From Octopus vulgaris (lineage: Eukaryota), in assembly GCA_951406725.2 (NCBI GenBank), contig OX597819.1, forward strand, positions 98,642,001 through 98,706,000: 64,000 nt of DNA. The letters are read 5' to 3'. Position 1 is the stretch's first letter, and each line of letters starts with the position of its first letter. Both the position numbers and the translations under genes were made by a program. Shown piece after piece: positions 2,638-59,055 of this stretch. Under the pieces are notes generated by a model. The model was not told where the DNA came from. It saw only the letters and a list, made by a program, of their open reading frames with translations, and did no database searches.

Positions 2638-2669
2638 ATTTCACTCCTAAGCTATTAGCGTGGTTTTGG

Positions 2670-2717
<48 letters not shown>

Positions 2718-2719
<2 letters not shown>

Positions 2720-2890
2720 TCTTTTACTTGTTTCAGTCATTTGACTGTGCCCATGCTGGAGCACCGCCTTTAGTCGAGCAAATCGACCCCAGGACTTATT
2801 GTTTGTAAGCCTAGTACTTATGCTATCGGTGTCTTTTGCCGAACCGCTAAGTTACGGGGACGTAAACACACCAGCATCGGTTGTCAAACA
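2718..2890 (-). mobile_element. SINE family B, 3' portion
   Basis: Reverse complement of the 3' half of the 26123-26525 element. Confidence 0.85.
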
Positions 2891-3021
2891 GATGTATTAG
2901 TATAACGCTCGGGAAGTGAAAAAGTTTAACGTTTCGAGCCTACTCTCTTCCACAGAAAGGAACACAGAAAGAAACAAGGAGAGAAAATAAAGAATGTGTA
3001 GTGGCTAGCGATCTATCATAA

Positions 3022-3052
<31 letters not shown>

Positions 3053-3110
3053 CACGTATGTATGTATGTATGTATGTATGTACACACACGCGCACGCACA
3101 CACACATACA

Positions 3111-3163
<53 letters not shown>

Positions 3164-3224
3164 GTGTATGTGTGTGTTTAAGTATATTCAGTTTATTTAC
3201 CTGCAGTCTTGTATCTATGCACAG

Positions 3225-3359
3225 ATTGTATACGTTGCTGCCAGCTTGCCCTATATTTTCCTTTCCGTGCTGTTGATAAGAGGTTTAACCTTGCCTGGAT
3301 CATTGGATGGACTATATTACTTCGTCAAGCCAGAATGGGAAAAAGTAACAGACCTCTCA
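3225..3359 (+). CDS. SLC6 exon (TM5): [45 protein letters not shown]
   Basis: acag| acceptor, |gtaagt donor, 135 nt, phase 0/0; SLC6 TM5 motif. Confidence 0.95.
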
Positions 3360-12300: not shown

Positions 12301-15300
12301 ATAAGAACAACTCCTAATCCTCTTTTACTTTGATATATAGCAGCTGGACTAGCTCTCTTTCATATTTTATTACGACGTTACTTCAGTCCCTGCAAGATGT
12401 ATTAACATTATTCTACACTAATTTAGGCCTCCGATCCTTTTGTACCACTTTCTTCAATCTTTATTCTTTCTGTTCAATGTCTTTTTATGGTTTCATCAGG
12501 AAGAGAAAGCCAGCGGTCGTCACACTCCATGACATTTAAAAGTGATTGTAGGAAATTTATCGTCGCATCGAACATCTGACAAGAATGTCAACAATAGTGA
12601 ACCTCGCTAAAATTATCCAAGGAACAAGTAGTGGAGTTAAACGAGATGACGGATTAAGTAAAAAAAAATCCAGCGTCGGTTTCTTCTACATAGTTCTTAT
12701 TTCCAAAGTTTCATTCGCAAGAGTTGGATCGATTTGGGCCTGTAATAGAGAACACTTGCTTTAAGTGCCAGCAGTATGATGGAAACTGAAACTTCATACT
12801 TGCAAAGCGAAGTTTTTAATCACAAACACAAAATACAAAACCACCCTTTTACGTACATTCTACTCTTTCTTTCACTATCTCTCTTAGTCTCTCGTCTACA
12901 TCTATCTCAAAATTTATTTTCCAAACTTCCAAATAGTACCTTCTCAAAGAGAGCTGTGAATATCTAGAGGTTGATATGAACTATAACGCACTGTACATTC
13001 TCAGAAAGCTGCGAAAGAAATTAACTCTTTTGTTCAAGCACTGAAGTATTAAAGATAATTTTCCCAGAATTCTTGATAAACTGCTTCGTTTTTGGATTTG
13101 GTTTGCAAGATTCTTTATATGAGTTCGTACGTTGAAGCATATTCTGTTGTGTCTGGGGAGAGTAATTTTCTTTCTGTGCCTTATGATATAACACACTAAC
13201 CGGTAAAATTTCCACTTTTTAAAAATGTTTATTTGATAAACTGTGTTAATAGGAAACAAGGAAACTGTTCTAGTGTCTGAAAGGAATCAACTCAAGTAGT
13301 AAGGTTTATTAATTTAACCATTCTGTCATTTCACCGGGACCAAACGAATGAGCCACGTCGATAACACAAATAAAAACCTCCGTGTCACAAGAAATGATAC
13401 GGCTCTTTGTTACAGGGGTCTTTCTTGGCAAGCACACGTCCCTGACATAACAAAAATTGCATAAAAACACTGACCTTCTTTCAAGGACCAGAAAATATTT
13501 GATCCCTCGACGACTGCACACCTTCAAATATAACCCACGATGGAGTCTTACTACTGTCACATCTGACTCAACCGGAGTGGGTTATCCCCCAAATCAAAGT
13601 TTCTCGTACGTTCTAAAAGATAGCAGTACTCAACCCATTAAATATTACATTAAAATATTCGAATCGCTCCTCTGTAAGTCTGTTTATTGTTCTGGCAAAG
13701 AAGTGTTTATCGCCTTAAATATTATAATATACGCGACATATCTAATATTTAAGGAAGTTGTTTGCTGCCTTAAATATTTTATAACAAACCTCACAGTTCT
13801 AAATCTGAAATATTTACTGCCTTAAACATTGAATAGTGCGACACAGTTTTAAATCTCCAGTGCTTATTGCTTTAAATATATAACATATTACTAAAGTGCT
13901 TCTTGCCTTAAATATTCTTTTCTACTCTAGGCACAAGGCCCGAAATTTTGTGGGAGGGGTTCAGTCAATTACATCGATCCCAGTTCGCAACTGGTACTTA
14001 ATTTATCAACCGCGAAAGGATGAAAGGCAAAATCGACCTCGGTGGAATTTGAACAAAGAACGTAAAGACAGACGAAATATCTATTACTTTACTACCCACA
14101 AGGGGCTAAACACAGAGAGGACAAACAAGGACAGACAAACGGATTAAGTCGATTACATCGACCCCAGTACACAACTGGTACTTAATTTATCGACCCCGAA
14201 AGGATAAAAGGCAAAGTCGACCTCGGCGGAACTTGAACTCAGAACGTAACGGCAGACGAAATACCGCTAAGCATTTCGCTCGGCGTGCTAACGTTTCTTA
14301 TTTCTTTATTGTCCACAAGGGACTGAACATAGAGGGGACAAACAAGGACAGACAAAGGGATTAAGCCGATTAGATCGACCCCAGTGCGTAACTGGCACTT
14401 AATTTGTCGACCCCGGAAGGATGAAAGGCAAAGTCGACCTCGGCAGAACGTAGCGACAGAGGAAATACCTATTTCTTTACTACCCACAAGGGGCTAAACA
14501 CAGAGAGGACAAACAAGGACTGACAAACGAATTAAGTCGATTATATCGACCCCAGTGCGTAAATGGTACTTATTTAATCGACCCCGAATGGATAAAAGCA
14601 AAGTCGACCTCGGCGGAATTTGAACTCAGTACGTAGCGGCAGACGAAATACAGCTACGCATTTCGCCCGGCGTGCTAACGTTTCTGCCAGCTCGCCGCCT
14701 TTCCTGCCTTAAATATTATATAACATACCTCATAGTTCTACATCTGAAATGCTTACTGCCTTAAACAAAATATAACATACGTAACTGTTCTGAGTCTGAT
14801 GTGTTTACTCCTTAAACATTGTACACCACAATGAAAACAATGTTATAAAGGATTAATAGGTTTTAACTTCAGGACCAGAAAATATCTTTTCTTTTGAACC
14901 GTTGCCGAATTTCCTTAATACAATCCCCAATCAGGAACCTTTCACATACCTGATAGATACCCACCCCTAAAAATAAAAGAATACGTGGCTGATTGGTTAA
15001 ATTTACTTTTTATTACGCTCCCACTGCACAACGCTATGCCTACATTCTCTCTCCCTCTCATACTCCTCTCTCTCCAACCCCTCTCTCTCCTACTCTCTGT
15101 CTCCTACCGCCTCTCTCGCTTACTCTCTCTCTCCTACACCTCTCTCTCTTACTCCATCTCTCTCTCCTACTCCCTCTCTCTTTCCTACCCCTTCTCTGTT
15201 TCTTCCATGTGTCTCTTTCTGCTGTACTATAATAGCGCCTGAACTTCAAAGCTATTAAATATATTCTGCTCATTTGGTTCGCTCAATTCTTGCCACTCAA

Positions 15301-15889
15301 ACAACTCTTATGAAAAAAATGCATTCGATGCTTAGCCCGTCACAGAACTGCAGCCTTCGGCTCACATTCTCCCGACATGAATCTATACGAATGATGATCA
15401 ATGAGTTCATTCCAGCTGCAAGAGTCTTGTATTATCTTTAAGTGTCTAGGATTACATTACATAATAAGTTCTCCCCATTTTAAAGATTATAAATGTACTT
15501 CGAAGGAAATTTTGTTACTGTTTATAGGCGTGAGCAGCCTTCTTTGATGTTGAAGGAAGTGAAACTGTTGATATAACGAGAGAAGATATGTTAGTCAACG
15601 TGTGGCCATCCCCCAAAAATAATGCGGTTTTTTTAAATACTTCTTTCATTTTTCAAAATTAAGATATCTGACGTGTTGTTATAATATGTGGATTACTTGT
15701 GAAGTGACACTAATAAGTGTTGCTGTGTATTTCTAGGGTGGACTCTACGTCTTACAAATAATAGACTGGTACTGTGCTAGTCTTACTCTGATGTTGATAT
15801 TGTTTCTTGAAATCATTGCAGTTGCCTGGGTTTACGGTAAGATCATCATCATTATCATTATATCGTCATCGTCGTCGTCGTCGTTGTCG

Positions 15890-15934
<45 letters not shown>

Positions 15935-18207
15935 ATCCCCTCCTACTTATCATCATCCTCATCATCTTCGTCATCGTCAACATCATTAGCATCTTCATCA
16001 TCGTCAACATCATTATTGTCCTAATGAGAATTTTGTCCATTTTCATTCGCTTCTATGCCAGTGTCAAACTCGAGATAGAAGAAAACGATATAGAATGTTA
16101 TAACACACACACACATGCACACAATGCGTGCACCACTCAAACACCACAAACACATACATACATCATACATACACACACATGCACAGAGCCATATGTAAAC
16201 ACGCACATACATACACACATGCATATACCTATACAAGAAACCTCCGCATTACGGTACCCCAGGTAAGTGTAAAATACCATGACTAATTTCGGAATACGGT
16301 CAGTAATTTCACAATTATGGTAACTAGGATGAGACTCATCGTAATGTGTCGATAATCACGAAGGTAATTAAGAAACCTTTGTGTAGTGATTTGCAGAAAA
16401 TGGAAGTTGGTACTTTTAATGAAAAGCTTTTTCTGGCCAGTAAAGGTTGGTTTGGAAGGTTTAATAAAGCGTTTGATATTGTTAATACAGAAGCTGCTTC
16501 CCAGAGCTTCTGAAAAATTAAATAATAATTGTTAAAGAGTGCTACACACCAGAGCAAGCATATACTGATGATGCAACTGCACCTTTCTGGAAGCTCATGG
16601 TTGCTGGAAGTTTTCTTCGAAAAGAAAAAGCAATGCCAGGAATAAAAGCTTTTCAAACCGTCTGGTGCTTCTTCTGGGAGGCAATGCTGCTGATAATGTG
16701 AAATTAAAGACATTATTCGTATATCGTTCCAAAAAATGTAACAGATTACAAGGATTGCTCAAAGTTTAATCTGTCTCTGATTTGTTCTAAATGTAAAGGC
16801 AAGGACGACTAAGAGCCTCTTAAAGAGTGGTTTCCAAATATTCTGTGTTCTGCTGCTGGGAGGCACAGTGCCAGACATATTTCCAACAAACATTGCTCTT
16901 TATAGACAATTCACTAAGCCATCCAGCTTAAATGAACTTTCTGGTAATGTGAGTATAATATATCCTCCCAAATACAACTTCTTTGCTCAGCCACAGGATT
17001 AAGGTGTGATAGCTGACGTCAAGACATTATCTGAGAATAGCTTTCAAATTACTTGTGAATGCAGTTGACAAAGATGATTAACCTACTGTTAGAGGCTTCT
17101 GGAAGAAGTTCAATATAACGGATGCTATGGATTACAAAGCTGAGTTGTGTGATGAAATGAAACTCTCAACTATAAATGATGTTTGGAAAATATATGGCCA
17201 GACTGTATCAGTAACTTTGCAAGTTCTTCACAAGCAGAAACTCTACATTAAAGTTAGTCGGAAAGTTATTGTGACAATGGCAAATGATATCATGTTTGAA
17301 GAAATCATTGAGGATGACGTGAATGAATTTATAATGTCCCATAGAGAAAATTTATCAAACGAGGGGGGCTGATGCTGTTAGCACAAGTGCAAGTTGAGAT
17401 CACAGAAGGGAATATGAAAACTTCCACAATTCCATTAAACTGACTGCGAAAGATATTGCTAAAGGTTTGCAAGTTTTTGTTGATAACAACCTTAATCGCG
17501 AAAGTAAAATATTAAAAGAGGTGCTCAGCCAGTTGCATGTTAATTTTTCGAGCTGGCTGTTCGTTGAACGGATCAACTGGAACACTCGTCGTCGTAACCA
17601 ACGGAGTGCCAGTATGAATATTTGTATAGGAGGTTGTGTAGAGTTTCAGAGGACTGAGAAGAGTTACATATTAAAAAGCAACTATTAAAAGGCTTTGAGA
17701 GTCGTAAGAGGAACTTTAAATATAATTACGTTCGTAATATATTTCTGTAAAGAATATTAACAAAACCATTTACTTACAAGAGGATCGTGATACATAGATG
17801 AGTTAGAAATATATTTCTATAATGGACATTAACAGCATTATTATATTTTGTAGGAGCCAGAAGACTAGAAAATGATATCAGCCTAATGTTGGGCCGAAGA
17901 CCTTGGCCAGTTTGGAAACCTTTGTGGACTGTCATCAATCCACTGTGTCTTCTTGTAAGTTCTTTATTAATCCCATCTGTAACAAATCCTATTTTATATA
18001 CGATTTATACACCACTACAGTATATAGGTCTGTTATACACTTCAATAGTTACAAGTTCACTGTCGTTCAGCCTCAGAACAGAGTCAAACCAATAGAACTG
18101 GTTTATCACAAACACTGCTGTTTAATTTAGGTACATACTTGTTCGTGATAATTGGAGTGTGTGAGTGTTTGTCGATATCTTTGTTTTGTTTGTTTTTTGT
18201 TTGTTTG

Positions 18208-18255
<48 letters not shown>

Positions 18256-18790
18256 TGTGTGTACGTATGTATATGTAAGATAATATATGCTTATTACAAT
18301 ACGTAAGACGTAATATTGTATTATATTTGTATTACAGATTCTTTGGACATCGAGTTTAATATCCTTCAAACATTTATTTTATGGCGACGGTACTATGTTT
18401 CCAAAATGGACTCACTATGTTGGTTATGGTATTGCTCTACTTACCATCATTCCAGTGCCAGTAATGGGTGTACAACAAATCATGAAGCATACAGGATCAT
18501 TTGTAAATGTAAGTAATCTTTCCACACATCTTAGATGAAACTGTGATTTGTAGATAACACAATGTTTGAGACTTGTCGGCGATTATTTGTATGCCGACGT
18601 AGTTAATATAATACACATACAGTCGGTGGTAGTAGTAGTCGTAATGATAATGATGATTACAGGGTGTTGCGTTGCTGATGGGGATAATGATGACAGATAG
18701 ACGCTCGGATTAACCGGGAGACGCACCCTTATACTGTTCTTTGTATTGGTATGCTCATAGATAAATATATAATTTGACAGACAGATAGAC

Positions 18791-20304: not shown

Positions 20305-21881
20305 AAGGTGTAATGTGGAAGTGCTAGGTAGTACTACACACTAGAAAACGACACCTCAATACATAACTTTATTTTCCTTTACTTTTATATTTTGAGTTTA
20401 TTTCCATGATTACATTCCTCTTTATATATATATACCTATTTTTACATAATGAATTTACCTACCATATATACTATTCTACTTTGCATAAAACTTTAGCTAT
20501 ATTGGTACTTCTGGCTCTCGTTTTTTAAGTATTCTAATGCGTCAATATTCTACAAAGATGATGGTACCTTTTTTAATTATAATTTTACTTTGTAAATGAA
20601 GATCAAATGAGTTTTAATATTCAAATTCTATCCTTAGCTGCAATATTTTAAGTAAAAATTGTCTTGTTTTGTACTTTACCAGATGTAATAAGTTGTCCTG
20701 AACTTTTCCAGGTTTATAATCTTAAGAATATTATTTCGCTTGCTCTCATTTTTCCATGTAATCCATGTTTTTTCCAGGTTATGCTATGATGCTAATTAAT
20801 AATGTGTCAATTAATAATCTAAGATTTTACTTTATTGAAAATTGAATTCGATAAACTTTCAAAGAACAACAGCTACTAATATTACCCATCCACATCAAAT
20901 TAATGGCAGAGAATTTTGCCATTTCAAAGGTTGCACTATGGTTCACCAATCGGTAACAAACAAAAAGACCCAAAACCATCAGTTACCAGGCTCACCTTAA
21001 GTAACCTAGATTTTGAGTTGGTGATAATAGCAATGACTGCTGCTGATCTAGATCTATCAATAATGATTCAATACAACAGTAATTATGAAAGCATATCACA
21101 TATACACAAGTGAAAATTACCTTCATTCCCATACTACAAAAATTGATATATGAAAATCCTTTTAAATTAATTTCGATATTAAATATTACGTTTAGAATAT
21201 AATCACTTTATAATAATGCCTTTTCTGGACAGCCTTACTACATGCTTTCAGGCTGCCTATAGAAACAGCCAAAAATGACTATATTCTTTCCCCAATAAAA
21301 TTAGATGTGTACATATGAAGCATATAAAACATTAATGAACTAGCCTGATTATATAATTAACTAAAAAGAAAAAGGGAAGCAACTAAAAAGGAATTAGCAA
21401 AAAGCGTAGAAAGCAAGTAAAGCTGAAAGTGAAAATTAATAAAAGTTAGACTTACTTAAGTGCACTAGCATATTAAAAATAATTTTATCAATTAAATATT
21501 AAAGTTTAAAAATAAGTTGTAAAATATAAGCACTTTTGACTAATGCCTTCTCTGAACAGCCTTACTACATGACTTCAGTACTGCCCATACAGACACAGCT
21601 AGAAATGCCTATATTCTATCAAGTGAATTTTGGATTTTAAAGAAAATAAAGATAAAAAAATTATTCAAATTTATTATCTTGCAATTATTAATAAATGATA
21701 TGCATGTTTATAAGCAAGAAATTATTGATTTCATAAGAAGGAACAACAACTACAGTATAATCATCTTGAATTTGCAATATGGCTCACCAAACGATAGTAA
21801 ATTGCAAGAACCCAAAATGTTCAGTCACCAGGCTCACCTTAAATCACATAGATCTTGTGTTGATGAAAACATATATAAAAT

Positions 21882-23540
21882 GTTTCATTAAAGACGATAT
21901 GGACATGCAAGAGGATCTACCAAAAACCACCAACGAAGAAGCACTATTAGTTTCCTTCGATGTCATCAACCTATACACCAACATTCCACATGACTACGGA
22001 ATAGAGGCAATAAAGTTCTGGTTAGAAAAATACTCCGAAGTTCCCCCGGACCCCATAAACCTAGATTTTTGTCATTGAATCTCTGAAGTTCATCCTACAA
22101 AACAATTACTTCCTATTCGATGAAACATGCTATCACCAAAAATGCGGTATTGCGATGGGAACAAAAAAAGCAACGACTGTCCTTGCGAACCTAATAATGG
22201 GTTTCTTTGAATCTACTCTATATGAATTTTCGCTCCAAAAATTTGGATCCCTATTCCACCAGTATATAAGAGAAAACTGGAGAAGGTACTTAGACGATTG
22301 TTTTATCATCAGGAATGAAACCTATGATATCCTTCACTGAACAATATAAACGCCAATATTCAATTTACAATGGAATATAGCAATGAACAGCTCCCATTTC
22401 TGGACATTTTGATTATAAAAAAATCCAACAATGAAATTGCCACCGACATCTACCACAAACCAACATATTCAAAACAGTATCTCCTTTTCAGCTCATGCCA
22501 TCCTAAACACACCAAAATAAATATCCCATTCAATCTAGCAAAACATCTGTACAATTGTATCTGATACAGCTACTCGGGAATTTCGCCTACAGGACCTCAA
22601 AATAACACTCATTGAACGCCAATACCCACCCGCATTGATAGACCATGGAACTAGACACAAACACATTAAAGACAACAAAACACAACACCATGCCTCACTT
22701 TAAATCACTCCCATTCATATCAACCCACAACCCTTAGAAACAATGAAGCAACACAATCGTACAAAATCTCCCTCTGCTCATTCACGATCCGAAAAGGAAC
22801 AACATTCTGAATACACATAAACTCCTCAAATGCAAAAGACAACGCAAATCACTTCAGAAACATCTAACAAATGCAAAACTGTAGTCAACACATACGATAC
22901 CAACAGCTAAAGAAATGCGGACGACCTAATTGGGGTACATGTCCAAACCTAAGGCTCACATTCCAGCAAGGAGAAAAATATTTAATTAAAACCAACTTCA
23001 CATGTGCCTCTCAGAAACTAATTTATGTCGTAGCCTGCTCAGGTTGTGGCCACAATTATGTAGGCCAAACGAGCCTTACTTTGAGATGCAGAGTTACACT
23101 ACATAAAGAACAGATTCGTTTTCCTCAAAGCAGGCAGATAGCTCTGAGCGAACTTATTGACAGATGCACAAGAAATAAAACACCGAATTTTCATATTTTC
23201 CCATTATACCAATACAAGGATTCAATCTCCTTACAAGAACGCCTAAACAAGGAAAATCTTAATATATAAACTTGACAACCTGATCCCTACGCTTTGCTAT
23301 TTCAAAATCAAATTTATTTACCACTATTCAATGATGCTGAGGAGGTAGATGTCCCCCTTACCACCTGTTGACTCCTTTTATCCACTCTTTCCATTCAATT
23401 TTACTTCTCAAGAAATGCAAAATGGCGTGATTCCTTATCTCAAGGAATTATTACTTTACAATGACCCTTGAAAAGCTAATGTAAATAGCGAAAACCGGCT
23501 GGATATCACTACATTTTATCAGACTTTTACCATCCATAAA
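21882..23540 (+). mobile_element. Penelope-like retroelement (RT + GIY-YIG endonuclease), 5'-truncated and frameshifted
   Basis: LVSFDVINLYTNIP, GIAMGT, WRRYLDDCF, LPFLDILI, YHKPT..KQYL.F.SCHP, and C....LIYVVAC..C...YVGQT...R...H motifs in the correct order. Confidence 0.9.
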
Positions 23541-26549: not shown

Positions 26550-27535
26550 CTACTCAGGGGCCTACGCAGAGTTGCAGAAAGTGTATGGAGAGGAGTGTAT
26601 GAGCCGCACACAAGTGTACGAGTGGTTCAGACGTTTTCCAAGATGACCGAAAAAATGTCGATAGTGACGAACGATCTGGGAGACCTGCAAACAGCAGAAC
26701 TGAAAAAAAACATCGCAGACGTGCGTGCAACTGAGAGGAAATCGAATCGACATCCGTGAGTAATCAGAGGATGTGCAGATTAGTTACGGCTCAGTTTAGT
26801 CCATTATCACTGAAGATTTGGATATGAGACGCGTATCTGCCAAGTTTGTGCGAAAAGTGGAAAACTGTAGCCCCCCCCCCTTCAAAAAAACACACTCGGA
26901 TTTCAGTTGAACAAGATCTCCTTGAATGTGCTGAGAACAATCAAAACTTTTTGAAAACGGTCGTAACGGGTGATGAATCGTGGGACTATGGCTATGACCC
27001 TGAAACAATGGCTCAGTCTTCGCAGTGGAAGACCCCAATTGCTTATGAGTCGAAGTAATGTGAAGGTACTGTTGACCGTTTACTTTGGCTACAAGGGGAT
27101 CGTTCATGGAGTATACGCCACCTGGCCAGGCAATAAACAAGTAGAACTACCATAACGTTTTGCGGCGTTTGCGGGATGCTATTCGCTGGAGAAGGCCTCA
27201 ATTGCATGTGTCCGGTGTGTGGCAATTGTACCCTGACAATGCACCTACCCATTCAGCGCAGCTTGTTCTGCAGTTTTTGACTAGACACAACGTTCCCCAC
27301 GTCCAACAGCCACCGTATTCCCCAGATCTCGCCCATTGCCAATTTTTTCTCTTTCCAAAAATCAGATTCAGCTCGAAAGGAAGAAAATTTCAGGACGTCG
27401 AGGAAATGAAAATGAATGCAACAAGGCAGCTGCTGATTATCTCATAAAACGAGTTCCAGGAATACTCCAATCAATAGAAACAGCGCTGGATTAAGTGTGT
27501 GGCTTTCGAAAGGGACTACTTTGAAGGAGATTAAA
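26550..27535 (+). mobile_element. Mariner (DD34D) transposase remnant
   Basis: VYEWF.RF, R.SAKFV, TGDESW.YGYDPET, DNAPTH, PPYSPDLA.C.FFLFPK and YFEGD* motifs, frameshifted. Confidence 0.9.
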
Positions 27536-31564: not shown

Positions 31565-31916
31565 TTGAGCATGTCCCTTAGTGGCCGACAAAATGTACAT
31601 CTCTGATCACGAGCAGAAGTAGTGGGGGAGCATCATAGCCATGTGTTGAGAGAGATTCTTTGGGGTTTGAATAATTCACCTTTGGAAACATGGGTGTTTT
31701 GTTCAACATCTTTAAACAACCCTTAATCAGGGACCTTTTGAGCATGTCCCTTAGTGGCCGACAAAATGTACATCTCTGATCACGAGCAGAAGTAGTGGGG
31801 GAGCATCATAGCCATGTGTTGAGAGAGATTCTTTGGGGTTTGAATAATTCACCTTTGGAAACATGGGTGTTTTGTTCAACATCTTTAAACAACCCTTAAT
31901 CAGGGACCTTTTGAGC
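31565..31916. repeat. Exact 173-bp tandem duplication with TTGAGC junction microhomology
   Basis: TTGAGC at 31565, 31738 and 31911; the two units appear identical. Confidence 0.95.
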
Positions 31917-32021: not shown

Positions 32022-32051
32022 GGGTTAGGGTTAGGGTTAGGGTTAGGGTTA
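32022..32051 (+). repeat. Interstitial telomeric repeat (TTAGGG)4 plus partial units
   Basis: gggttagggttagggttagggttagggtta. Confidence 0.9.
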
Positions 32052-35482: not shown

Positions 35483-36452
35483 CGAGATGGTTTCAAAGAG
35501 TTCCCGGCCTAGTTCTGTAGCGCGCCAACAAATGGCAGTACACGATTGCGTGCGTAGTGAGAACTAGTAGTGACCTTTATGAGGCAGTGTGCTAAGTGAC
35601 ACCGCTGTTTACTTCGCAAGTTGTGAAATTTGCGTTTTTGTGATCACCTGTATGCTGTAGTCTGCGATTTTTGTCATGGACAAGAAGTTGAAACAAAGAG
35701 CCAACGTGAAATTTTGCGTTAAACTTGGTAAATCTGCCACAGGGGCATTGAGCATACTTCGGCAAGCTTACGGCGACGAGGCGATGGTTCGTAAGCAATG
35801 TTTTCAAAGGATTATCACTGGTGACGAGAGTTGGGTCTACAGTTATGACCCTGAAACGAAGCAGCAGTCATCACAATGGAAGAGTTTTTCATCTCCACGA
35901 TCGAAGAGAGCACGACAGAGTCGCAGATCAATCGAGAGCATGCTCATCGTGTTTTTCGACATCCGCGACATTGTGCAGGGCCAGACCGTCAATCGAGAGT
36001 TCTACTTCGACGTTTTGAAGCGTTTGAGGAAGGACATACTACGAAAGCGATTGAATCTATGGAGTGCGAAGAATTGGATTCTTCACGGCACTCTGCCACC
36101 GAGCTCTTCTCATTCGTGAGTTTCTCTCCGAAAATAACATGGTATCGCTTTCGCACTTGCCCTGTTCATCGGATTTAGCACCTGCAGATTTCCATCTTTT
36201 CCCTAAGATGAAAACGTAGCTAAAAATCGCCGTTTTAACACCGTTGTAGAGATTCAGAGTGAATCGCAGAAGGTCCTCGAATCGCTTCCGGAAAACGACT
36301 TCCAGGCCGGATTCCAACAGTGGCAGAAACGCTTGGACAGGTGTATTGCTGCGCAAGATAACTATTTCAAAGGAGATGATGTTAAAACTTTGTTAAATAA
36401 GTTATTTTCTTATTAAATATAACTAGTACGGGAACCTTTTGATACAATCTCG
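35483..36452 (+). mobile_element. Internally deleted mariner transposon
   Basis: Imperfect TIRs cgagatggtttcaaagagttcccggcctagtt / aactagtacgggaaccttttgatacaatctcg with TA flanks; QRANVKFCVKLGKSA, ITGDESWVYSYDPETK, SDLAPADFHLFPK motifs. Confidence 0.9.
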
Positions 36453-39960: not shown

Positions 39961-41166
39961 ATTCGGAAATGAGATTTGAGCCCAGCAAAAGAAAGGCATA
40001 TAGACAGGCAGATAAATAGATAGATAGAAAGATATGGATATAAATAATTATTTCTAAGATTCTTCTGAACCCTAGTACCTTAATGCTGAGGACATCTAGT
40101 GAGGGTCGAGATCTGCATATCTTGGTGTATACCATATACAAACACACCTGTATATACCCATAATATATAGACATATTCATACACTTACACATACAAATAT
40201 ACGCATACATGTAAATATTGATGTGCACGAAAATATATACTCATGCATACCGACATGTAGTTTCACGTCCCAATGTAAGTTCCATATACAACATAGGGAA
40301 GGAACCAGAAATGGTGTTCGCATAAAATAAGAACGAAGATGGGATAAAAGGTTCACGACAGTTGTTTTAGAAACGCTTTTTTATTAATGAATAATTTGAT
40401 TACATCATTGAAAAAGAAAACCGTTTTCTTCAGGTGAATTAAAAATTTAAAATTTGGACCCCTTATCGCTCTACCTCGTGCGGTTTTCTGCCGCCCGTAC
40501 TTTTAAGAAACCCTACGGGCTCGACCGGTCCACCGACGCCGCTTCGCAATCCACGCCGCAACCATGCCGTGATCGAGGTGAGCCAGCCAACCTCAGACGC
40601 AAAGGAGACCGGCTGCAACAGCAAACCCGGGTTTCACGTGGAGCTACGGACGATGGCTTCGGCATTCCATTTATCTTAAATGTAATGTGAATTCCAACCA
40701 ACAGGCTCATAAAACCAAACTTATCTGAATTTACAAGACACTGAAGCTCAGATAAACAAGATTATTTCACAGAACGGGACGCTAATCCGTTGTCCAGTGA
40801 ACTCCCAGATATCATGAGTTCTAATTTCCAACTGAGTGTACCGGAGCAACGTGAAGAGGGTGCTTTGCTCGAAGACTCCGCGTAAGAATCTAACGTATGG
40901 CCTAACGATGATAAGTCTAGCTCTCTAGCCAATAGACTACACACTTTCACACCTTATATAAGGGTTGATTATATTCTAAATAACAATCTTTATCATTAAC
41001 TATAAGTAATTATGGTTGGACCAAATCTTACAGATAGTCCCAAATATGCTATACATGTAGATTCTTTAATATTTATGCTGTTTTTACAATGTCTTTTGTG
41101 TATATTGTATTTTACACACGTTCTCTTAACTGTAATTTGATAATTTCTTTCACTCTTTCATCTTAG

Positions 41167-41248
41167 GCCCTGAAATTGTCACGTGGTATTCTTTTTCAAT
41201 GACTAAGTTTAGGTTAGATTTATTCCTCACGTAATTGTAAACTTATAA
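41167..41248 (+). other. Possible non-coding 5' UTR exon of the GPCR gene
   Basis: Polypyrimidine tract and tcttag acceptor ending 41166, aa|gtgagt donor at 41249, and tttcag acceptor at 41456 just before the ATG. Splice signals only; no transcript evidence. Confidence 0.35.
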
Positions 41249-41458
41249 GTGAGTCTATTCAATATCCTAGTAATTTCAAACACTGTCTTGTACTTAATAT
41301 AACTAATTAAATATTAGTTTTTCTTTCACGTTTTCCTTCTTATGCTCTGACCTGATGTGGTTTTTACTACATCAAATATCTTATGTACCTTGTAATTCTA
41401 ATATTTTAATGCTTTCATTGTTTTAATTTTATTATCTCAATTCAAACATATTTCAGTG

Positions 41459-44400
41459 ATGTTGTTCCTGGATATACTTCTTCTAATCAAGTTAACAGTG
41501 GGTGTGCACTGTTGGAAAACTTCCAATTTAACAAATAATAAGGATATGGTTGTTGCCAATAAGAATATATTAAAAACTCCAGCAAAAAAGAATATTATTA
41601 TTTCAGACAGAGAGAAATATTCGAGCAGGTTGGTAAACAACCGGAAAAGAATATCTTCAGATTTGGCAATATTTAGAAATATCTACGTAGATATGGATAT
41701 AAACAGTGTTAAACAGAAACAATTAATTTTCGAAATATTTTCTAAATTCTACAGAAAACATATGAATTGTCAAAGAAACAATTTAGATCAAAGATCGACT
41801 GAGGAAATGATATATTTTTGTAAAAAACAACTGCAAAATAAAGTGCTAAAGTTTCATAATGGTATCAAAGAGGACTTGCAAGTAAAGCCAGTCAATAAAC
41901 AAATGAAATATTTTCTAACAAAGAACAGCCAAAATCTTGCGGAAAGATTTCAGGTTTATTATAAATATAATTGGACTTTTCAAATTTGTTCTATATTTAC
42001 TGCAATGCTCAACAATAACTTCCGAAATTTTAAATTTAAAGTACAGAATTTCGTCACTACCAAATCAACGCTGAAACTTTATCTTTCAGATTTAAAAGTT
42101 TTGGAAAACGTAGCGAAATATATGCTAGACTGCGATTTGATGCTAAAGAAGAAACAGAATATTAACTCAGACTCTGAAATCCATACTGGGTTACCGGTTT
42201 TGGAAGAAGTATTACCAAATAATGTAACAAACTTTCTGGTGACAGAAGGTAGCAAGAATATAAAACCACCCGAATATTCCAAGATCAGTGTGGCACCTGA
42301 AAGTCATGAACACGTTAAAATTACAGATACAAGTATATTTGTAGATGATACTGGTAGCAAACATTTACCAGAACATACAACGCTCGGTATAGCAGAAGCG
42401 TCCTCGAGTAATAACGTGAAACTTATTGTCAATCCTGGTTCACCTGTAAACTCACCAGGAACTACTAACAAGCTTTCTACCGGAAAAACCTCTCAAGCGT
42501 CCAGTTGTTCATTTATAACACGCTTACTCACAATCCACAAACCTATTCACCATAGTTCTATTCAGATCAATAAGAATCCTTCATTAATGTTTACTAGTAA
42601 CCATGCAACAGTTCTGACATCGAATAAGGAACAACCAATATCTTCTCTTCAATATAAAATAACTTTACCAAAATTATTGACATTTTTATTTCGGAAGGAA
42701 AATTTGAAATTTAAAGAAACACCATTTATTCCGAAACACAACTACGAAGTAATCTTTTTGCCAAAGTATTCTTCCCTAGTTTCAAATATTTTAATTCGTT
42801 TCGAATTTCGTTCGAAGTATAGATCTTTCATACTGGTCATCTGTAGATCTAATCTTGTTCATCGAAGACCAAAAGTATTTTGGAATTGCAAAATTTTCAG
42901 ATATGCATATCATCAAATCAAGAAAAAATCAAAATACATAACTATCTTAATCACAGGTAGATTCTTAGTTCTTTTTCCAATAACTCGTTTAATTTTCAAA
43001 TATAACACCATTCCATTTATTTCCTGGACAAATTCGAACTCAGATTTTCAGAAATCAGTTGGAAACAATTCTCCAATCCAGACCAGTCAATGTAAATTTT
43101 CAATTAATTTATTATTGTTTTCTACTCTAGGCACAAGGCTCGAAATTTTTGAGGAGGTGGGCCAGTCCAATATATCGACCGCAGTATACAATTGGTACTT
43201 AACTTATCGACCCCGAAAGGATGAAAGGCAAAGTCGACCTCGGCGGAATTTAAACTCTGAACGTAAAGACAGGCGAAATACCGCTAAGCATTTCGCTCGG
43301 CGTCGAATCAAGTCTTTAGAGGAAATATTTTCTTCGTTCACCGGCAGGAAATTATTATTTAATGTTAAGTCAACTAATTCTGCTCTTATTCACAAATTAA
43401 TAAAAAGGGATTTAAAAAGCAGTCAGCAGTTAACATCACAAAAGACGATTCAGTCTTTTTCTAACGCGTCCAACGACCCAACCACTCCAAATTTGATAAC
43501 TTCGTCCTTGATTCACTCCTCAGCTGTGGTTACATCAAAAGAATCCACAACACAATTGCGTTCTTCAAAGGAAACAATTTTGGGGTTTTCTAATATTACC
43601 GAATTACCAAAGCAGTTGGAGAATGTTAATTCCTCAACGGTAAATTTGACACAAGCTGTTGATTTAAATAAAACATTTAACATGGTAGATATTATAATTC
43701 AACCAGCTATTTTATTTACTGGAATAATTGGCAACACCATCTCTGTTCTTGTCTTTAGATCGACGGAGTTTAAAAACGAAGTGGCTTTTTATATACCAGT
43801 GTTCCTTTCTACAATTGAAATGCTTACAGGTATAATCGTATTTTTTGACAGCGATTTTTATATTTATTTCTTTGGAGGGAAAATATCGAACCTAAATTTC
43901 ACCATGTGCAAGGCATTTCATTATCTGAAAGTTTTTGTCAAATCTACATCGGCTTGGGCAATTGCTATGATGTCAGCAGAACGGTTTATTGCGGTCAAGT
44001 TTCCATTGAAAGCTAAAATCTACATCACAAAATACAAAGTTATGACTACAGTGGTTGTTTGCTTTCTAGTTGAGATAATGCTTAATTTCTCTCAGCTCGG
44101 CATGAGGTCCTATAATAATGACCAATGCGTTAAATCTAAACCAACTCATAATATTTTGGTTATACTAATAACAATGTTTAACGGGTGGCTTATTCCAACA
44201 TCAGCCACTGTCATACTGAATATATTAATTATCATCCATCTGAGGCGACAGAGCAGGATTCGAAATACACTCACACGTGAAGATAGAAGTCAACAATTTC
44301 GACAGATTAACGTCATGCTTTTTACCATAATAATTTGCAAATTTATCTTTGAATTACCACTAATGATACAACATGTATTAACGTGGGTTCGCTATGGATT

Positions 44401-44530
44401 AAGCGATCTTTTAGATAGTGTATTTATGGCTCTTGGTTTTACACAGCATTCTATAAATGCCTTTTTGTACAGTTTTGTTTCAAAATCTTTCCGTTCTGTA
44501 ATTTTGAGATGTTTTCGAAACAAAAGCTAA
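41459..44530 (+). CDS. Class A (rhodopsin-like) GPCR, FMRFamide-receptor-like/molluscan orphan type, with signal peptide and very long (~740 aa) N-terminus; single coding exon
   Basis: Uninterrupted 3-kb ORF in AT-rich DNA. ATG at 41459 follows a tttcag acceptor. Hydrophobic leader MLFLDILLLIKLTVGVHC. 7TM region from ~43682 with GIIGN (TM1), C...AW....MSAERFIAVKFPLKAK (TM3), IP...LN (TM5), ELP (TM6), INAFLY...SKSFR (TM7/H8). Confidence 0.88.
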   Translation: MLFLDILLLIKLTVGVHCWKTSNLTNNKDMVVANKNILKTPAKKNIIISDREKYSSRLVNNRKRISSDLAIFRNIYVDMDINSVKQKQLIFEIFSKFYRKHMNCQRNNLDQRSTEEMIYFCKKQLQNKVLKFHNGIKEDLQVKPVNKQMKYFLTKNSQNLAERFQVYYKYNWTFQICSIFTAMLNNNFRNFKFKVQNFVTTKSTLKLYLSDLKVLENVAKYMLDCDLMLKKKQNINSDSEIHTGLPVLEEVLPNNVTNFLVTEGSKNIKPPEYSKISVAPESHEHVKITDTSIFVDDTGSKHLPEHTTLGIAEASSSNNVKLIVNPGSPVNSPGTTNKLSTGKTSQASSCSFITRLLTIHKPIHHSSIQINKNPSLMFTSNHATVLTSNKEQPISSLQYKITLPKLLTFLFRKENLKFKETPFIPKHNYEVIFLPKYSSLVSNILIRFEFRSKYRSFILVICRSNLVHRRPKVFWNCKIFRYAYHQIKKKSKYITILITGRFLVLFPITRLIFKYNTIPFISWTNSNSDFQKSVGNNSPIQTSQCKFSINLLLFSTLGTRLEIFEEVGQSNISTAVYNWYLTYRPRKDERQSRPRRNLNSERKDRRNTAKHFARRRIKSLEEIFSSFTGRKLLFNVKSTNSALIHKLIKRDLKSSQQLTSQKTIQSFSNASNDPTTPNLITSSLIHSSAVVTSKESTTQLRSSKETILGFSNITELPKQLENVNSSTVNLTQAVDLNKTFNMVDIIIQPAILFTGIIGNTISVLVFRSTEFKNEVAFYIPVFLSTIEMLTGIIVFFDSDFYIYFFGGKISNLNFTMCKAFHYLKVFVKSTSAWAIAMMSAERFIAVKFPLKAKIYITKYKVMTTVVVCFLVEIMLNFSQLGMRSYNNDQCVKSKPTHNILVILITMFNGWLIPTSATVILNILIIIHLRRQSRIRNTLTREDRSQQFRQINVMLFTIIICKFIFELPLMIQHVLTWVRYGLSDLLDSVFMALGFTQHSINAFLYSFVSKSFRSVILRCFRNKS
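43118..43303 (-). mobile_element. tRNA-derived SINE copy (family A), 5'-truncated, embedded in frame in the GPCR ORF
   Basis: Matches other window copies (13918-14080, 58780-58995): tttctactctaggcacaagg...ggtactta..ttatcgaccccgaaaggatgaaaggcaaagtcgacctcggcggaattt.aactc.gaacgtaaagac...gaaataccgctaagcatttcgctcggcgt. Confidence 0.95.
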
Positions 44531-44591
44531 GTAAAGACAACATATTAAAAGCAAACGCAATGAAATATTTAGTATACTTTTGTGTAGTGGA

Positions 44592-44597
44592 AATAAA
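44592..44597 (+). promoter_or_regulatory. Candidate polyadenylation signal of the GPCR gene
   Basis: AATAAA about 60 nt after the stop codon, followed by GT-rich sequence. Confidence 0.4.
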
Positions 44598-45489
44598 TGT
44601 TTGCTGACCTGAAATATTTGCAGTGGGTTTGTGTATACGCTGGTATTAAATAGCTGAAAATTATATATTGTTGTCCAGTTTGGAATATGATATGATTATC
44701 ACAAATTCAAGGCATGTATTGCTTTGTAGTCATGAGTTAAATAGTAAAACGTTGTGATGAAATTCTGTTACAGTAGAAGTATGTCATAGTTGTAATGTTG
44801 CGATGACAAGAGTAGTCACGGTTTTTTTATATGATAATGAAGCGATTGTGATGTCCTACTGGATATATCAAGGTTGTAGAGAAGGAATCTTCAGGTATTC
44901 ATTTATTGCCAGAAAAGAGCAACTAAAATATAACTAAAGCATAAAAATAAACCTTATAATGAAAGGATGCAATAGGTAACTGCAGTAAACTTTAAAACGA
45001 GGCTACAACCTCGTTCTGATAAACTTTGACGTCTGCAATAACGTTTCAAAATGATGATTGATAAAATGTAAAAATGTGATAGGATCAGTTTAAAATATAT
45101 GAAGAAAGACAAGACTTGCGGTTCTGATTGCTGAAAAATAAGTGAGCAAGATAATTAGGAGAAAATAATTGAGAAAAAAATTACAGAAAATTAAATTAAT
45201 TTGAAGTCATATTTCAACAGATTCAATATGACATCGATTACTCCAGTTCACCTAGATATAAGATGAACAGGAGTAATAAATGTTATATCATTGCAAAATA
45301 GATCAATGAAAATCTTCAATGATATCGGGTGATTTGGCATGGTTACTCTTTGTGAAGAGCAACTTAATCTTTCTCAAATTACAACCTACCTAATTGAAAA
45401 AGGAGAACAAATTAGATAATGTCACCCTTTATTCGCAATATCTCAGGGAAGGACGGCATGATCTTAACTGGAGCTAGACAACAACAACA

Positions 45490-47040
45490 AAGATATTTTG
45501 TCAAGCCCATGAGTAGTTGACTACAGCAAGGAAGAATTATAAACAGCTCGTCAATATTTTAGTCATATGTTTTATATGGGCTATCTGAAAACCTTCGCCA
45601 GCAATGATATTCGTCAGGTGATCTACTAATCACTGTGAAGAGGATCAGTAATGGTAATGCAATAGCGTTCAGATTACGTAGATGTGCTAAAGCTACATGC
45701 AATAAATATGCGCTTACTGTAACATCAAAATTACACCTTAACAGCAACACAAAAATCAAGGAACTTCATAAGAAAGACACATGAAAGTAATACCTAGGAA
45801 TAAAGGAAAGAGATGACATACAGCTTTCTGTCATGAAAGATTAAAATACAAAAAGAATATTACAGGAGAGTTAGATTGATACTAAGGACTGAACTAAAAG
45901 CATCTGACCGATATGAATCTATCAGTAGTTTTCCTATACATACGGTCACTCAGTTTTAATACAGTAAATTGAACACTGAATGATTAAAAAAAAACTAGTT
46001 ACTAAAACAAGGAAAATGCTGATAATAGCCAACACGTACCATTCAAAAGCAAAATGTTGATAGTGTTTAGCCATCAAAAGCAGAGAGAGGTGAACGTTTG
46101 ATACATCTTGAACGAAACTACCTAATCACTGATACGTATTTCTACGTATCATGTTACTATTTTTTGTAAATTATCAAACATCAGGTAAGCAAAAGAAACT
46201 ACATCCAATCAAATGTGAAGAAAATTCTCACAAAAACTGTATATCACTGAATTAAGACAAAATAAAAACTCGGCAATTTTTTGCCTATAGATTAAAACAA
46301 AAGCGGTACATCAGGGCTACAAAGAATAAGCAAAAGACAGTAAAAAGAAAGTTATGCGTGGCAAATATCCAAAAAGGCTTAAAAAGGTAGATGTTGGCCA
46401 ACAACAGACAACTAAATGATTCAAAGATATTGGATGCAAGATAGAAACGGATGGCTTTATCATCGCTGCCCGAAAACAAACTCTAAGCGTCGGTTTACAT
46501 CACTGCATCTTCAACGATGGCACAGAAAAATATTGAGAACATTTGAAAAGACCACCGTTCACATTATATCAACCGCCAGCAGACACCAGTATGCCTACAC
46601 TGGAAAATGTGTAGGGAATATGATTTCAAAATGTCTGAGAAAGAGTATGAAAATAAACCAGAAACAGTTACCATAAATGGTAACCTTACCATCTTATGGG
46701 ACATGCCAATGCAGATAGATTGGGAAATTAAAGCAAACACACCTGATATTACAATTAAAAAGTGATAAAAACCTGCATGCTGGTTGATGTGACAATACCA
46801 GCATATCTCCAGTTAAGCTTAAAGAAAAAACTGTTTCGACATAAAGAATTTGATATTGATATCTCTAAAACGTAGGACTTGAACTATGCCAGAGTAATCG
46901 GGTGTCTTGTGTTTATCAAAACGGGACTGGAAAAATCCCCCAGCAAAATTCCAGGGAAGATCACACTAAAAAAAACAACTTTTAAAATATCAAATCATTC
47001 AGGAACACCACATATAATACGGATTCTATTTTTAAAGTAG
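45490..47040 (+). mobile_element. Highly degenerate R4/Dong-type LINE fragment
   Basis: YLGI.E, ETDGFIIAA, ILWD.P...D..IKAN.PDI, L.DV.IP motifs in broken frames. Confidence 0.6.
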
Positions 47041-47690: not shown

Positions 47691-47938
47691 CAGACCTAAC
47701 GTGCTAACGTGCGGTAAAAAACACTTGATAAAACGTTTGCTCATAGATAAAACATGTCTTCTCATTATTTTGTTTATTGTAATGTTGACAATAAAAATTT
47801 TACTGTAAACCATCAAATAATGTACTCTAGAATATCAGACAGTAAAATACTGTACTCTAGACTCAAGGCCATCAAATACTTTACACAAATAGATTTTGCA
47901 CTCCACCAGACAATCAAACGCTGTATAATAGACACATA

Positions 47939-49209
47939 CGAGGGGCGTTCAATAAGTAATGCCCCTGACCCACCTCCCATAGCAGTAGAGCAACGAAACT
48001 TGGCACAGTTATTAGTCTTTTTCTACATAGGAACCACCCAGAATTACGCATTTCTCCCATCGTTTGATGCAGCTCTGGAGACCGTTTTTGTAGAAGACCC
48101 CAGCTTGGTCCTCCAACCACGACGTGACTTCAGAAATCAAGGCTGCATCATCTGGGAAACGCTTTCCTTTCAAAAACAACTTCATGGCTGGGAAGAAATG
48201 AAAATCAGAGGGTGCATGGTCAGGAGAGTAGGGGGGATGGGGTAGGAGTTCATAGCCGCACGCCTGTGCTTCTGATCTGGCGACACGCGAGTTGTTGACC
48301 AGAGCGTTGTCCTGCAGGAGGAGGATGCTCTTGTGATCTTGCCCCGCCTCTTGATTTTGATAGCTTCTCTTAATTTCCTCAAAAGTGAAGCATAATAGGC
48401 TCCTGTAATTGTGGTACCCTTTGCCAGGAAATCTGTTCAGAAGACTGTGAGCATGACCTTGCCAGCGGAGGACTGCACCCTTGCCTTCTTTGGATGAGGT
48501 GAGTCACGGTGCTTCCACTGCATTGACTGGGCTTTGGTCTCTGGATCATAGTGATGGACCCAGGTTTCATCCTGTGTAGTCAGTCTTTTGAAAAAGTTTG
48601 ACTCATCTTCTTGACACATCTCCAAATTCATCCTCGAGCACTCGACGCGTTCTTGCTTCTGGAAAGGTGTGAGCAATCTGGGAATCCATCTGGCAGACAC
48701 CTTTTGCTTATGCAAATGGTCATGAATGATAGTTTTCACAGACCCGGTACTAATCTTGACCTCATGGGTTATTTGGCGACTAGTTATGCGTCGATCTTCC
48801 AAAATGGCAGCCTCAACTTGACGGACAGATGCCTCATCAATGGCAGAAGGGGGGCGACCAGATCTGGGAGCTGTTTCCACAGAGTTCCGACCATGTTTGA
48901 ATTCACGATGCCAGCGTTTTACAAGGTCATATGATGGGGCATCATCACCATAAGTTACTTTCATTTCATCAAAAGTCTCCCGTGGTGTGCGTCCTTTCAA
49001 ATACAAAAACCGGATCACTGCTCGGCACTCAACAGCCTCCATTTCACAATTGACTCAGTTCAAACACCTCTAAATAAGAAACTACAATTAGTTCAAAGCT
49101 GTAATTTGCCATTTAATCTATAGAGATATATATAATTGCACATGAAAAATTCAAGCTAGATCAAACAACTGCAAATGGATCAGGGGCATTACTTATTGAA
49201 CGTCCCTCG
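47939..49209 (-). mobile_element. Near full-length mariner, same family as 10155-11424, inverted and inactivated
   Basis: Same TIR sequence and TA flanks; ORF 48437-49042 with ARWIPRLLT and QDETWVHHYDPETK; deletion after KVMLTVF. Confidence 0.95.
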
Positions 49210-50678
49210 TAAATACTGTATTTGGTAGCATAAGACACCCTCTCGCATAAGACGATTTTACAAGAAAATTTTGTAGAAAGTCCCAAAAGTACATTTTATC
49301 ATACACCTACTAAAATAAATTTTGATGTAGTTTTGTGGTGAGGAATGTATGATTCTGTGCATTTAGATATAATATTTTGACTGCACACCAGAATAAAGTG
49401 TGAAACCATAAATTATTATTGATACATTATGAATATATTACGCATCCCAACGTTAACTGCTTTTAGATTAATTGTATTGTTTAAATTTTAATCAAAAGAA
49501 TTGCTATAGAGGATGTAAAACTTGTGTTTTTGACTGTTTTGTATTACCGTGATCAGTTACCAAGATGGCGCATCGCTGCAATAGTTTTGTTGTCACCCAT
49601 TCATTGCAAATAGCTAATAAGCAGATGAAATTTAAAGGTACACTTTTCATCTTTCTTAGATAAATTTTGATTTAGACAATAAAAAATTCTTCTTAAATGT
49701 AACACATCCTTTGAATAATGTAAGACATATATCAAAAGTTTTGTATGCTGTGGTAGGAGCTGATGCGACATCTCCACGTAATTGCTGACGTACCATTAGC
49801 AACCTCTTGTAAGTCTGTGGCAACAGACTCATAATTTCGCTTGTTTTCATTTGCTTATTATTAGTAACAATGTTTGTGCCAAGCTGATTTAAGCTCATTC
49901 GGCTCCTTAGACATTCGATCGAATTAGACACTGAGAAATATTTCGATGTATTAAAAAAACAAAACAAAAAGCAAGTCTTCTACGTCGGTAAATACGGCAC
50001 ACAGGTGACATTAAAATACTACTGCAAAAATAATACAATCATGGCAAAGGACCAATGAAATACTGTAGAGATTCAAATACATTCAAACGCATCAGATACT
50101 GTACTGTATTATTAATAAACTATTGTCTATAAAAACATCATATTGTTGGTATTTCTCTTTCGATATTGTGTGGTGGTGGTAATCAGTGTCGGCCTGATAT
50201 TCTGTGCCGACATTATATTCTGTATGATATTCTATGTTGGAATTCTGTGTTCGTTTTCATATTTTGCGCTCTTGGAATTTTATTAAACAGCTATTATCGC
50301 TTGTGAGACGGTGTCACAATAGTTTGAGTCTATTGTTGTCATTGTTTCATTACCTTCCTTTAACTGATGTGGGCAGATATTATGTCTGCCTTTGGCGGAA
50401 GATATGTTGAGGACGTGACTGCCAATTCCTTATCAACCTCTTCAGATTTCACACGAAGATGTAAATGACAAGGGAGAAAGGCATCCCACTTCTGTAAATT
50501 TTTCAGAAGGCTAATAAAGTATTTCCCACCTGAATGGCCTTTCTGTAGGTATGTCCCTGTGAATCGGGGATTGAGAGCTGTGAGAGGAATTTACCCTAGG
50601 TAGTCGGAATAACCAAGAATGGCTCCTAGACAGATGACAACAGACGTACATTTGACTGGCAAATAAATGCCCAATATA

Positions 50679-58515: not shown

Positions 58516-58539
58516 TAATATTAATGATAATAAAAGTAA

Positions 58540-58993
58540 TCCTTTCTACTACAGGCACAAGGCTTGAAATTTTGAGGGGAAGGGACTAGTCGATCACGTT
58601 GACCCCAGTGTTTCACTGGTACTTAATTTATCGATCCCGAAAGGATGAAATGCAAAGTCGACTTCAGCAGAATTTGAACTCAGACCGTAAAGATGGACGA
58701 AATACGGCTAAGCACTTGCCCGGCGTACTTAATGATTCTGCCAGCTCGCCTCCTTTAATAATAATAATAATAATAATAATCCTTTCTACTAAAGGCACAA
58801 GACCTGAAATTTTGGAGCAGGGGAACAGTCGATTACATTGACCGCAGTAATTATCTAGTACTTAATTTATCGACCCCGAAAGGATGAAAGGCAAAGTCAA
58901 CCTCGGCGGAATTTGAACTCAGAACGTAACGACGGGCGAAATACCGCTAAGCATTTCGTCCAGCGCGCTAACTATTCTGTTAGCTCACCACCT

Positions 58994-59055
<62 letters not shown>

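Follow-up and report, generated by a model that had tools for sequence, protein, structure and literature searches.

An octopus class A receptor with a domain-less N-terminus of about 700 residues that appears constrained in frame more than in sequence

Introduction

Very long N-termini of class A GPCRs normally carry repeat domains, and the ectodomain of the vertebrate orphan GPR37 measures about 260 residues. According to the available part of PMC12315979, GPR37 is a class A orphan with a long N-terminus whose ectodomain is cut by furin and ADAM10, the furin site lying within a highly conserved region. Adhesion GPCRs are expanded in octopus, as stated in the available part of PMC6408891, and the octopus SINE name OR1 (CORE-SINE) occurs in the accessible text of PMC4824008. 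Outside subscription journals and bioRxiv supplements we found no report of a receptor like the one described here; its motif gave 0 matches in one supplement of PMC11886862, a paper whose Zenodo data could hold the gene.

Here we analyse a stretch of 64,000 nucleotides of the Octopus vulgaris genome (assembly GCA_951406725.2, contig OX597819.1, positions 98,642,001 to 98,706,000 of the forward strand; hereafter the window, numbered from its first letter). It probably encodes a real and unusual receptor, in which, as far as can be judged from sequence, the leader, the stalk and the seven-helix (7TM) layout are of a known kind and the stretch from about aa 19 to aa 655 is new.

Results

Gene structure and surroundings

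A single frame on the forward strand, from the ATG at 41459 to the TAA at 44530, is open over 1023 codons and encodes a protein of 1023 aa (P0001), in which a signal peptide is followed by 720 domain-less residues and then by an intact class A 7TM core. Each of the other five frames contains 26–57 stops across 41459–43681, and 741 open codons would arise by chance at the local base composition with p ~1e-25; together with the independent homologue P0002 (see below), this rules out a chance ORF or an assembly artefact. An ancestor of the N-terminus in an alternative frame is likewise rejected, as the other forward frames hold 56 stops each and no compensated frameshift between P0001 and P0002 was detected. 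A preliminary description of the locus had the entire N-terminus in one exon: the single genomic frame stands and no GTRAG donor occurs in 41301–44530, and the single exon is a prediction from that frame. A 5' UTR intron upstream of the start codon is likely from the sequence context; its candidate acceptor AG (41455–41456, + strand), two bases upstream of the ATG, did not pass the strict polypyrimidine filter. The first AATAAA past the stop (44592–44597, + strand) is a candidate polyadenylation signal. There is no full-length model of this gene among the NCBI or UniRef matches searched, and annotation seems to have missed it.

The receptor gene stands alone, with no second GPCR among the 420 of 588 candidate ORFs that were scanned in the window, the remainder being shorter minus-strand ORFs, frames within the receptor gene and two ORFs scanned separately. 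An SLC6 (SNF, sodium:neurotransmitter symporter) gene lies at 553–18535 on the forward strand, its eight exon-bearing ORFs spanning profile positions 160–523; nesting of the receptor inside it is excluded, since the SNF domain stops near 18.5 kb. A pair of similar Mos1/mariner-type elements, both with disrupted transposase frames, lies at 10151–11427 and 47936–49213, other DDE relics at about 1680–2206, 27145–27444 and 35661–36116, and the broken remains of a retroelement, which matches GIY-YIG weakly (E 0.005) and which we take to be Penelope-like, at 21770–23269 (+ strand). The window is also rich in microsatellites and contains internal telomere-type repeats (five perfect GGGTTA at 32022–32051) and tandem duplications at 31565–31916 (period 173, 100% identical), 14299–14618 (period 171) and 58516–59019 (period 239), the last two SINE-based. 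No structured RNA came near its gathering score in 40000–47000, and no tRNA genes were found.

Receptor class and family

The 7TM core with its stop codon occupies 43679–44530 (+ strand). The 7tm_1 profile covers aa 763–1004 with 59.2 bits (cut-off 30.5), and the motifs, with residue numbering assigned by hand in this analysis, comprise GN in TM1 (N1.50), C3.25 and the ECL2 cysteine, ERF (R3.50), P5.50, P6.50, N-x-x-x-Y in TM7 (N7.49/Y7.53) and helix 8. D2.50 is conservatively replaced by E in both P0001 and P0002 (aa 787 in TM2, near 43820), while all 51 family members aligned at this position, and also the closer relative P0004, have D, which implies a reversion or two independent changes.

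The nearest Atlas clusters (score 0.95–0.96) are of the GHSR-like, GPR139-like and Srw-containing kinds and come mainly from Mollusca, Nemertea and Chordata. PF10324 (7TM_GPCR_Srw) matches P0004 with 29 bits against a cut-off of 22.2 and leaves P0001 and P0002 unmatched. On the family profile P0001 scores 192 bits, compared with a median of 265 and a minimum of 160 among 142 relatives that were chosen by similarity to the query. It sits on a long branch in the tree, where its sister P0033 is only 21% identical and is discounted as a long-branch effect. With a profile of the 51 top matches, the scores of the ghrelin receptor, opioid receptors, GPR139 and NTSR1 differ by only a few bits, too little to assign a ligand. 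P0001 is best explained, from these sequence matches, as an orphan class A GPCR of the lophotrochozoan-rich Srw/GPR139/ghrelin-receptor-like group, with no orthology to a named receptor.

How unusual is the N-terminus within this group? From 154 proteins we set aside 3 matching through the SINE only, 2 copies of the query and 8 without a starting Met or an aligned TM1 Asn, and the N-termini of the resulting 141 relatives have a median of 53 aa, with 23 of at least 100 aa and 3 of at least 200 aa (264, 265 and 471). The longest unduplicated one is 265 aa, the 471 belonging to an internally duplicated model. At 667–740 aa the octopus N-termini are by far the longest, which bears out the early remark that such length is unusual for class A. 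Taking the whole of it as new went too far, as a leader and a Ser/Thr stalk are common in this group: a crude hydropathy rule finds a hydrophobic leader in 29 of 60 relatives with N-termini of at least 60 aa. Leader and stalk were thus probably inherited, and the novelty would be confined to aa ~19–655. Among the relatives, P0013 (813 aa) has an internally duplicated N-terminus and TM1–TM3; this is an artefact of annotation or assembly, or else a genuine tandem fusion like the one considered below for blocks B and C.

A full-length homologue and the layout of the N-terminus

The homologue P0002, a 7tm_1-bearing protein of 950 aa, is 74% identical to P0001 overall, collinear with it from the first Met to the end, and collinear over 98% of aa 1–740. 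It is 73 residues shorter: 53 residues are missing at the SINE, and ten further gaps measure 1–5 residues each. All ten small indels are whole codons, and four of them correspond to single-codon tandem repeats in the window DNA. The 11 of 11 alignment gaps sit in P0002 and none in P0001, a one-directional length change whose polarity needs an outgroup. A third sequence, P0004, is a fragment of 319 aa that begins at aa 705 and so covers no part of the extension; it is identical to P0001 at 292 of 319 positions and to P0002 at 250 of 319.

The leader (aa 1–18, 41459–41512) is hydrophobic and conserved, as expected of the signal-peptide-like segment claimed earlier: 16 of 17 residues are identical in P0002, and over aa 1–20 the count is 18 of 19 aligned residues against a background of about 70% (p=0.01). 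It is likely cleaved after Cys18, to judge from the sequence. Block A (aa 19–235, 41513–42163; 154/212 identical) is K/N/F-rich and cationic with a net charge of +24, and keeps RKR 62–64 and the sequons N23 and N171 in P0002. The Lys/Asn/Phe-rich composition described for this block is there; its scattered cysteines are not conserved, with only 4 of 8 kept in P0002, and a disulfide-bonded domain is thereby ruled out. Block B (aa 236–400, 42164–42658; 109/160) is a neutral S/T/P-rich linker of net charge -1, and block C (aa 401–553, 42659–43117; 99/146) is basic-hydrophobic with net +21. After the SINE (aa 554–615), block D (aa 616–655, 43304–43423; 28/39) stands directly ahead of the stalk and keeps the dibasic K649-R650, a candidate convertase site at which cleavage may occur. 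The family-typical Ser/Thr-rich stalk (aa 656–740, 43424–43678; 68/84) preserves four N-glycosylation sequons in P0002, and the 7TM core is identical at 224 of 283 positions. All these features except the SINE are on the forward strand, and the order of linker, basic-hydrophobic block, SINE and stalk is as first described. No internal repeat was found in the N-terminus: comparisons among blocks A, B, C and D plus stalk gave p 0.25–1.0, and C against the 7TM p=0.025, and blastp showed no repeat either. An extra transmembrane helix at aa 494–512 is unlikely, as hydropathy falls from 1.81 in P0001 to 1.32 in P0002 and the segment contains two Arg.

The view that the N-terminus has no recognisable domain was borne out by HMM and sequence searches. 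Pfam returned no family at E<=1 for aa 1–741; with sub-blocks as queries nothing credible appeared in Pfam (best E 0.009), NCBIfam or PHROGs (best E 0.07); PDB gave 0 matches at E<=10 for aa 19–553, and ESM Atlas no usable match for P0002 aa 1–560. The SINE excepted, a known domain or a transposon or virus protein as the source is rejected on this basis. When aa 1–740 were compared with 8000 scored candidates, two proteins matched, P0002 (E 1.7e-259) and P0003, the latter through the SINE only. Among 7557 candidates of 30–561 aa there was no shorter relative of aa 1–550, and among the 8000 scored of 562–1791 aa no stand-alone relative of the extension. A word-seeded search of 1.84 billion representatives contained no match to aa 19–545 among the best 150 of 1405 hits, and P0002 was the only match to aa 19–553 in the word-seeded searches and best 150 hits.

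A SINE within the frame

A tRNA-derived SINE lies antisense to the gene at 43103–43303 (- strand) and is read in frame as aa ~554–615. The copy is 5'-truncated, with the A box missing and the B box altered, and has 13 other blastn matches in the window; sister copies have A-like and B boxes, in keeping with a multicopy tRNA-derived element. It departs from the majority of nine other window copies at 14 of 126 core bases, while those copies themselves are 8–35 off. The SINE is present in P0001 and absent from P0002, which carries about 8 unrelated residues at this site, and this suggests that some 8 codons were deleted at insertion. From the same start the antisense frame is stop-free in 1 of the 9 other copies, and several have only 1–2 stops; since the frame tends to be open in this SINE family, a stop-free copy is unremarkable, and landing in register with a frame-keeping length would be roughly a 1 in 9 event. 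The antisense peptide also matches the Octopus bimaculoides gene model P0003 and contaminates the models P0003, P0009 and P0049. Two SINE subfamilies with a common core and different 3' ends are found in the window (43103–43303, 14110–14310, 325–560, 14480–14700 and 58760–58990).

Selection on the extension

Within the extension (aa 19–553 plus 616–655), 167 of 557 aligned residues differ from P0002 and there are 0 stops, whereas neutral simulation to the same divergence gave on average 15.7 stops with a minimum of 3 (1000 runs). Zero stops against about 16 expected, with 10 of 10 indels in frame, indicates that the frame is under selection. The substitutions themselves look neutral: their mean BLOSUM62 score is -0.40 (neutral -0.40±0.13), the hydrophobic class is retained at 0.65 as in the neutral case (0.65), and Pro, Gly and Cys are kept at 17 of 39 positions (25±3 expected). 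Conserved residues of the extension show no clustering (p=0.63 and 0.31) and no amphipathic periodicity (|z|<=1.8). In the 7TM core, by comparison, substitutions are conservative (mean BLOSUM62 +0.34 vs -0.32 neutral, p=0.001).

Omega is not identifiable from codon-to-residue data, which give ranges only: aa 19–553 alone are compatible with about 0.2–2.5, and a joint fit with shared dS prefers 0.13–0.55, values near 1 costing it about 3 log-likelihood units. The 11% drift of the SINE suggests a dS of about 0.2 or more, and so an omega of roughly 0.75 or less. At a dN of ~0.16–0.17 vs 0.12, the extension outpaces the 7TM core by a factor of only about 1.4, and may for this reason be more constrained than the word spacer implies. 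A fair statement, resting on the two full-length sequences P0001 and P0002, is that constraint appears strong on the frame and weak and unstructured on the residues.

Discussion

The frame is open in two lineages, with indels in frame, neutral-like substitutions, a SINE gained in frame and an intact 7TM core. With moderate confidence we explain this by an inherited layout of leader, stalk and 7TM that was stretched by a frame-locked, cationic, low-constraint spacer of some 630 residues, which is possibly clipped. In this inherited layout of signal peptide, glycosylated Ser/Thr stalk and 7TM core, about 630 residues would have been added between leader and stalk. Lying between the start codon and the receptor, the spacer would be held in frame by selection while most of its residues drift, because any stop or frameshift destroys the receptor. 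In-frame insertions, such as slipped codons and the SINE, would be tolerated. The leader presumably directs the N-terminus into the ER, while the spacer would be largely unfolded with no fixed fold, and the 7TM core would bind a small ligand or a peptide. The spacer may be clipped at the dibasic K649-R650 or R62-K63-R64, or shed, as in GPR37. Cleavage is the weakest step of the mechanism and, being argued from analogy, is put forward tentatively: no strict R-x-K/R-R furin site is common to P0001 and P0002, only the dibasic RKR, RR and KR are kept, and conservation of the dibasic sites is within chance.

Where did the added sequence come from? A de novo origin is plausible, and we favour stepwise recruitment of AT-rich sequence. 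Block C resembles translated AT-rich DNA, in that it has no codon periodicity (p=0.70) and fits its own base composition (p=0.29); periodicity is weak in block A (p=0.012) and clear in block B (p=4e-5) and the stalk (p ~1e-5). The FYMINK content, offered as a sign of recruited non-coding DNA, does not discriminate, with values of 0.37 for the N-terminus, 0.41 for the 7TM core and 0.38 for translated flanking DNA. It is possible, though doubtful, that an ectodomain of about 630 residues built from non-coding DNA, a transposon and perhaps a decayed duplicate of the gene itself, and locked in frame, is by now being put to use as a cationic module that is shed or binds a partner; in that case we would be seeing the birth of a de novo domain, whose insertion steps could be dated across octopods.

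Charge is one argument for a functional extension. The net charge per residue of the N-terminus is +0.079 and +0.082 in the two copies, while 61 relatives with N-termini of at least 60 aa have a median of -0.08, with only 4 positive and 57 neutral or acidic, and the block charges are kept between P0001 and P0002 (A +24/+22, C +21/+19). The extension could then be a fast-evolving cationic recognition domain, or a shed fragment, that binds anionic partners such as egg or mucus glycans or microbes; a mixture of purifying and positive selection would mimic neutrality, and the joint fit does favour omega below 1. Some cephalopod GPCR expansions are under positive selection and expressed in testis or gill, according to the available part of PMC6408891, with no tie to the present gene. 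We nevertheless regard this as unlikely. The flanking DNA, when translated, is just as cationic (K+R 15.0%, D+E 6.7%), a cationic N-terminus being the default of translated AT-rich DNA; a conserved patch, a Cys pattern and periodicity are all absent, and a SINE peptide of 62 residues is tolerated.

An origin compatible with the stretched, frame-locked layout, and one that we consider improbable, is that blocks B and C are a decayed upstream tandem copy of the receptor (stalk plus TM1–TM4) fused in frame. The lead, no more than that, is a weak TM3/ICL2-like stretch at aa 474–508 (42878–42982, + strand), seen with a family profile and by profile-profile comparison: the profile of the 7TM cores of 142 relatives matches it at TM3 with 5.0 bits, a score that 5 of 500 sequences shuffled globally and 1 of 500 shuffled locally also attained, and in profile-profile comparison (E=0.0036) none of 62 shuffles scored higher, one coming close to a tie. 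Aligned with itself, P0001 gives a best local match that runs collinearly for 200 columns and pairs aa ~322–518 with aa ~683–862 (blocks B/C with stalk to TM4), and a Ser/Thr block followed by a hydrophobic block mirrors the order of stalk and 7TM. The lead is however post hoc, and P0002 on its own reaches -3.1 bits, which 386 and 429 of 500 shuffles equalled or beat. None of the pairwise tests was significant (17–77 of 300 for P0001, 118–291 of 300 for P0002), HH assigned a probability of 9% to the match with the family profile and of 0.2% to that with the octopus trio, no similarity is seen in the DNA (31 vs 32±3), and block A would be left unexplained.

Fusion of the receptor to a secreted protein, raised in the preliminary description and taken here to mean a pre-existing protein that had a fold of its own, appears very unlikely. 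The signal peptide and the codon periodicity of block B agree with it, and remote folds could escape sequence searches, but the leader is a trait of the family, the size-graded candidate sets contained no stand-alone relative, the family and structure databases had no match, and the neutral-like substitutions give no hint of fold-like constraint. Least probable is a reading in which most of the region is intron or UTR and a short spliced isoform, made for instance via the possible phase-1 acceptor in the stalk (43521–43523, + strand), is the working receptor. In its favour, another acceptor lies in the SINE, P0004 starts within the stalk and no annotated full-length model exists among the proteins searched. 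P0004 was however probably cut at a contig end, since it has no starting Met, and 167 replacements and 10 indels would have closed the frame of a region that is not translated. P0002, for its part, has no Met from aa 447 to TM2 and so cannot start near TM1 in this frame. A short isoform may coexist with the long form but cannot explain the open frame.

A class A N-terminus of about 700 residues that has no domain, and whose frame is selected while its residues drift, would separate what must be translated from what must fold. Such a gene is a natural experiment on the amount of random, cationic sequence that a GPCR and the secretory pathway can tolerate, and on the rise of new domains through in-frame accretion, as new sequence builds up on a working gene; presence or absence of the SINE dates one accretion step. 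Cephalopod GPCR catalogues may lack similar receptors, given that this gene seems to have been missed by annotation.

Comparison with known systems

The closest relatives by sequence, the GHSR-like, GPR139-like and Srw orphans, share with the octopus receptor the TM3 motif CK-F...K..SxW...ERF..V.FPLKA and the TM7 motif N-x-F-L-Y, and many of them have a leader and a Ser/Thr stalk. The octopus receptor is, however, only about 30% identical to its best non-octopus-like matches and sits on a long branch, and it differs from the group in N-terminal length (667–740 aa vs a median of 53), in charge (cationic vs acidic) and in E rather than D at 2.50. LRR-containing class A receptors and adhesion GPCRs also have very long N-termini, but the octopus receptor lacks LRR, LDLa, GPS/GAIN and 7tm_2, its 7TM core being of the 7tm_1 type. 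SINE exonisation is a further parallel, since an antisense tRNA-SINE is translated as protein here as in the O. bimaculoides model P0003; in the octopus receptor, though, the element sits inside a pre-existing open frame, without new splice sites, and apparently replaces about 8 codons. GPR37 and GPR37L1, vertebrate class A orphans with a long N-terminal ectodomain, serve as the working analogy for cleavage. They differ from the octopus receptor in that its conservation is flat, its ectodomain reaches about 720 aa compared with about 260 aa, the strict furin site is absent and no sequence relationship is seen.
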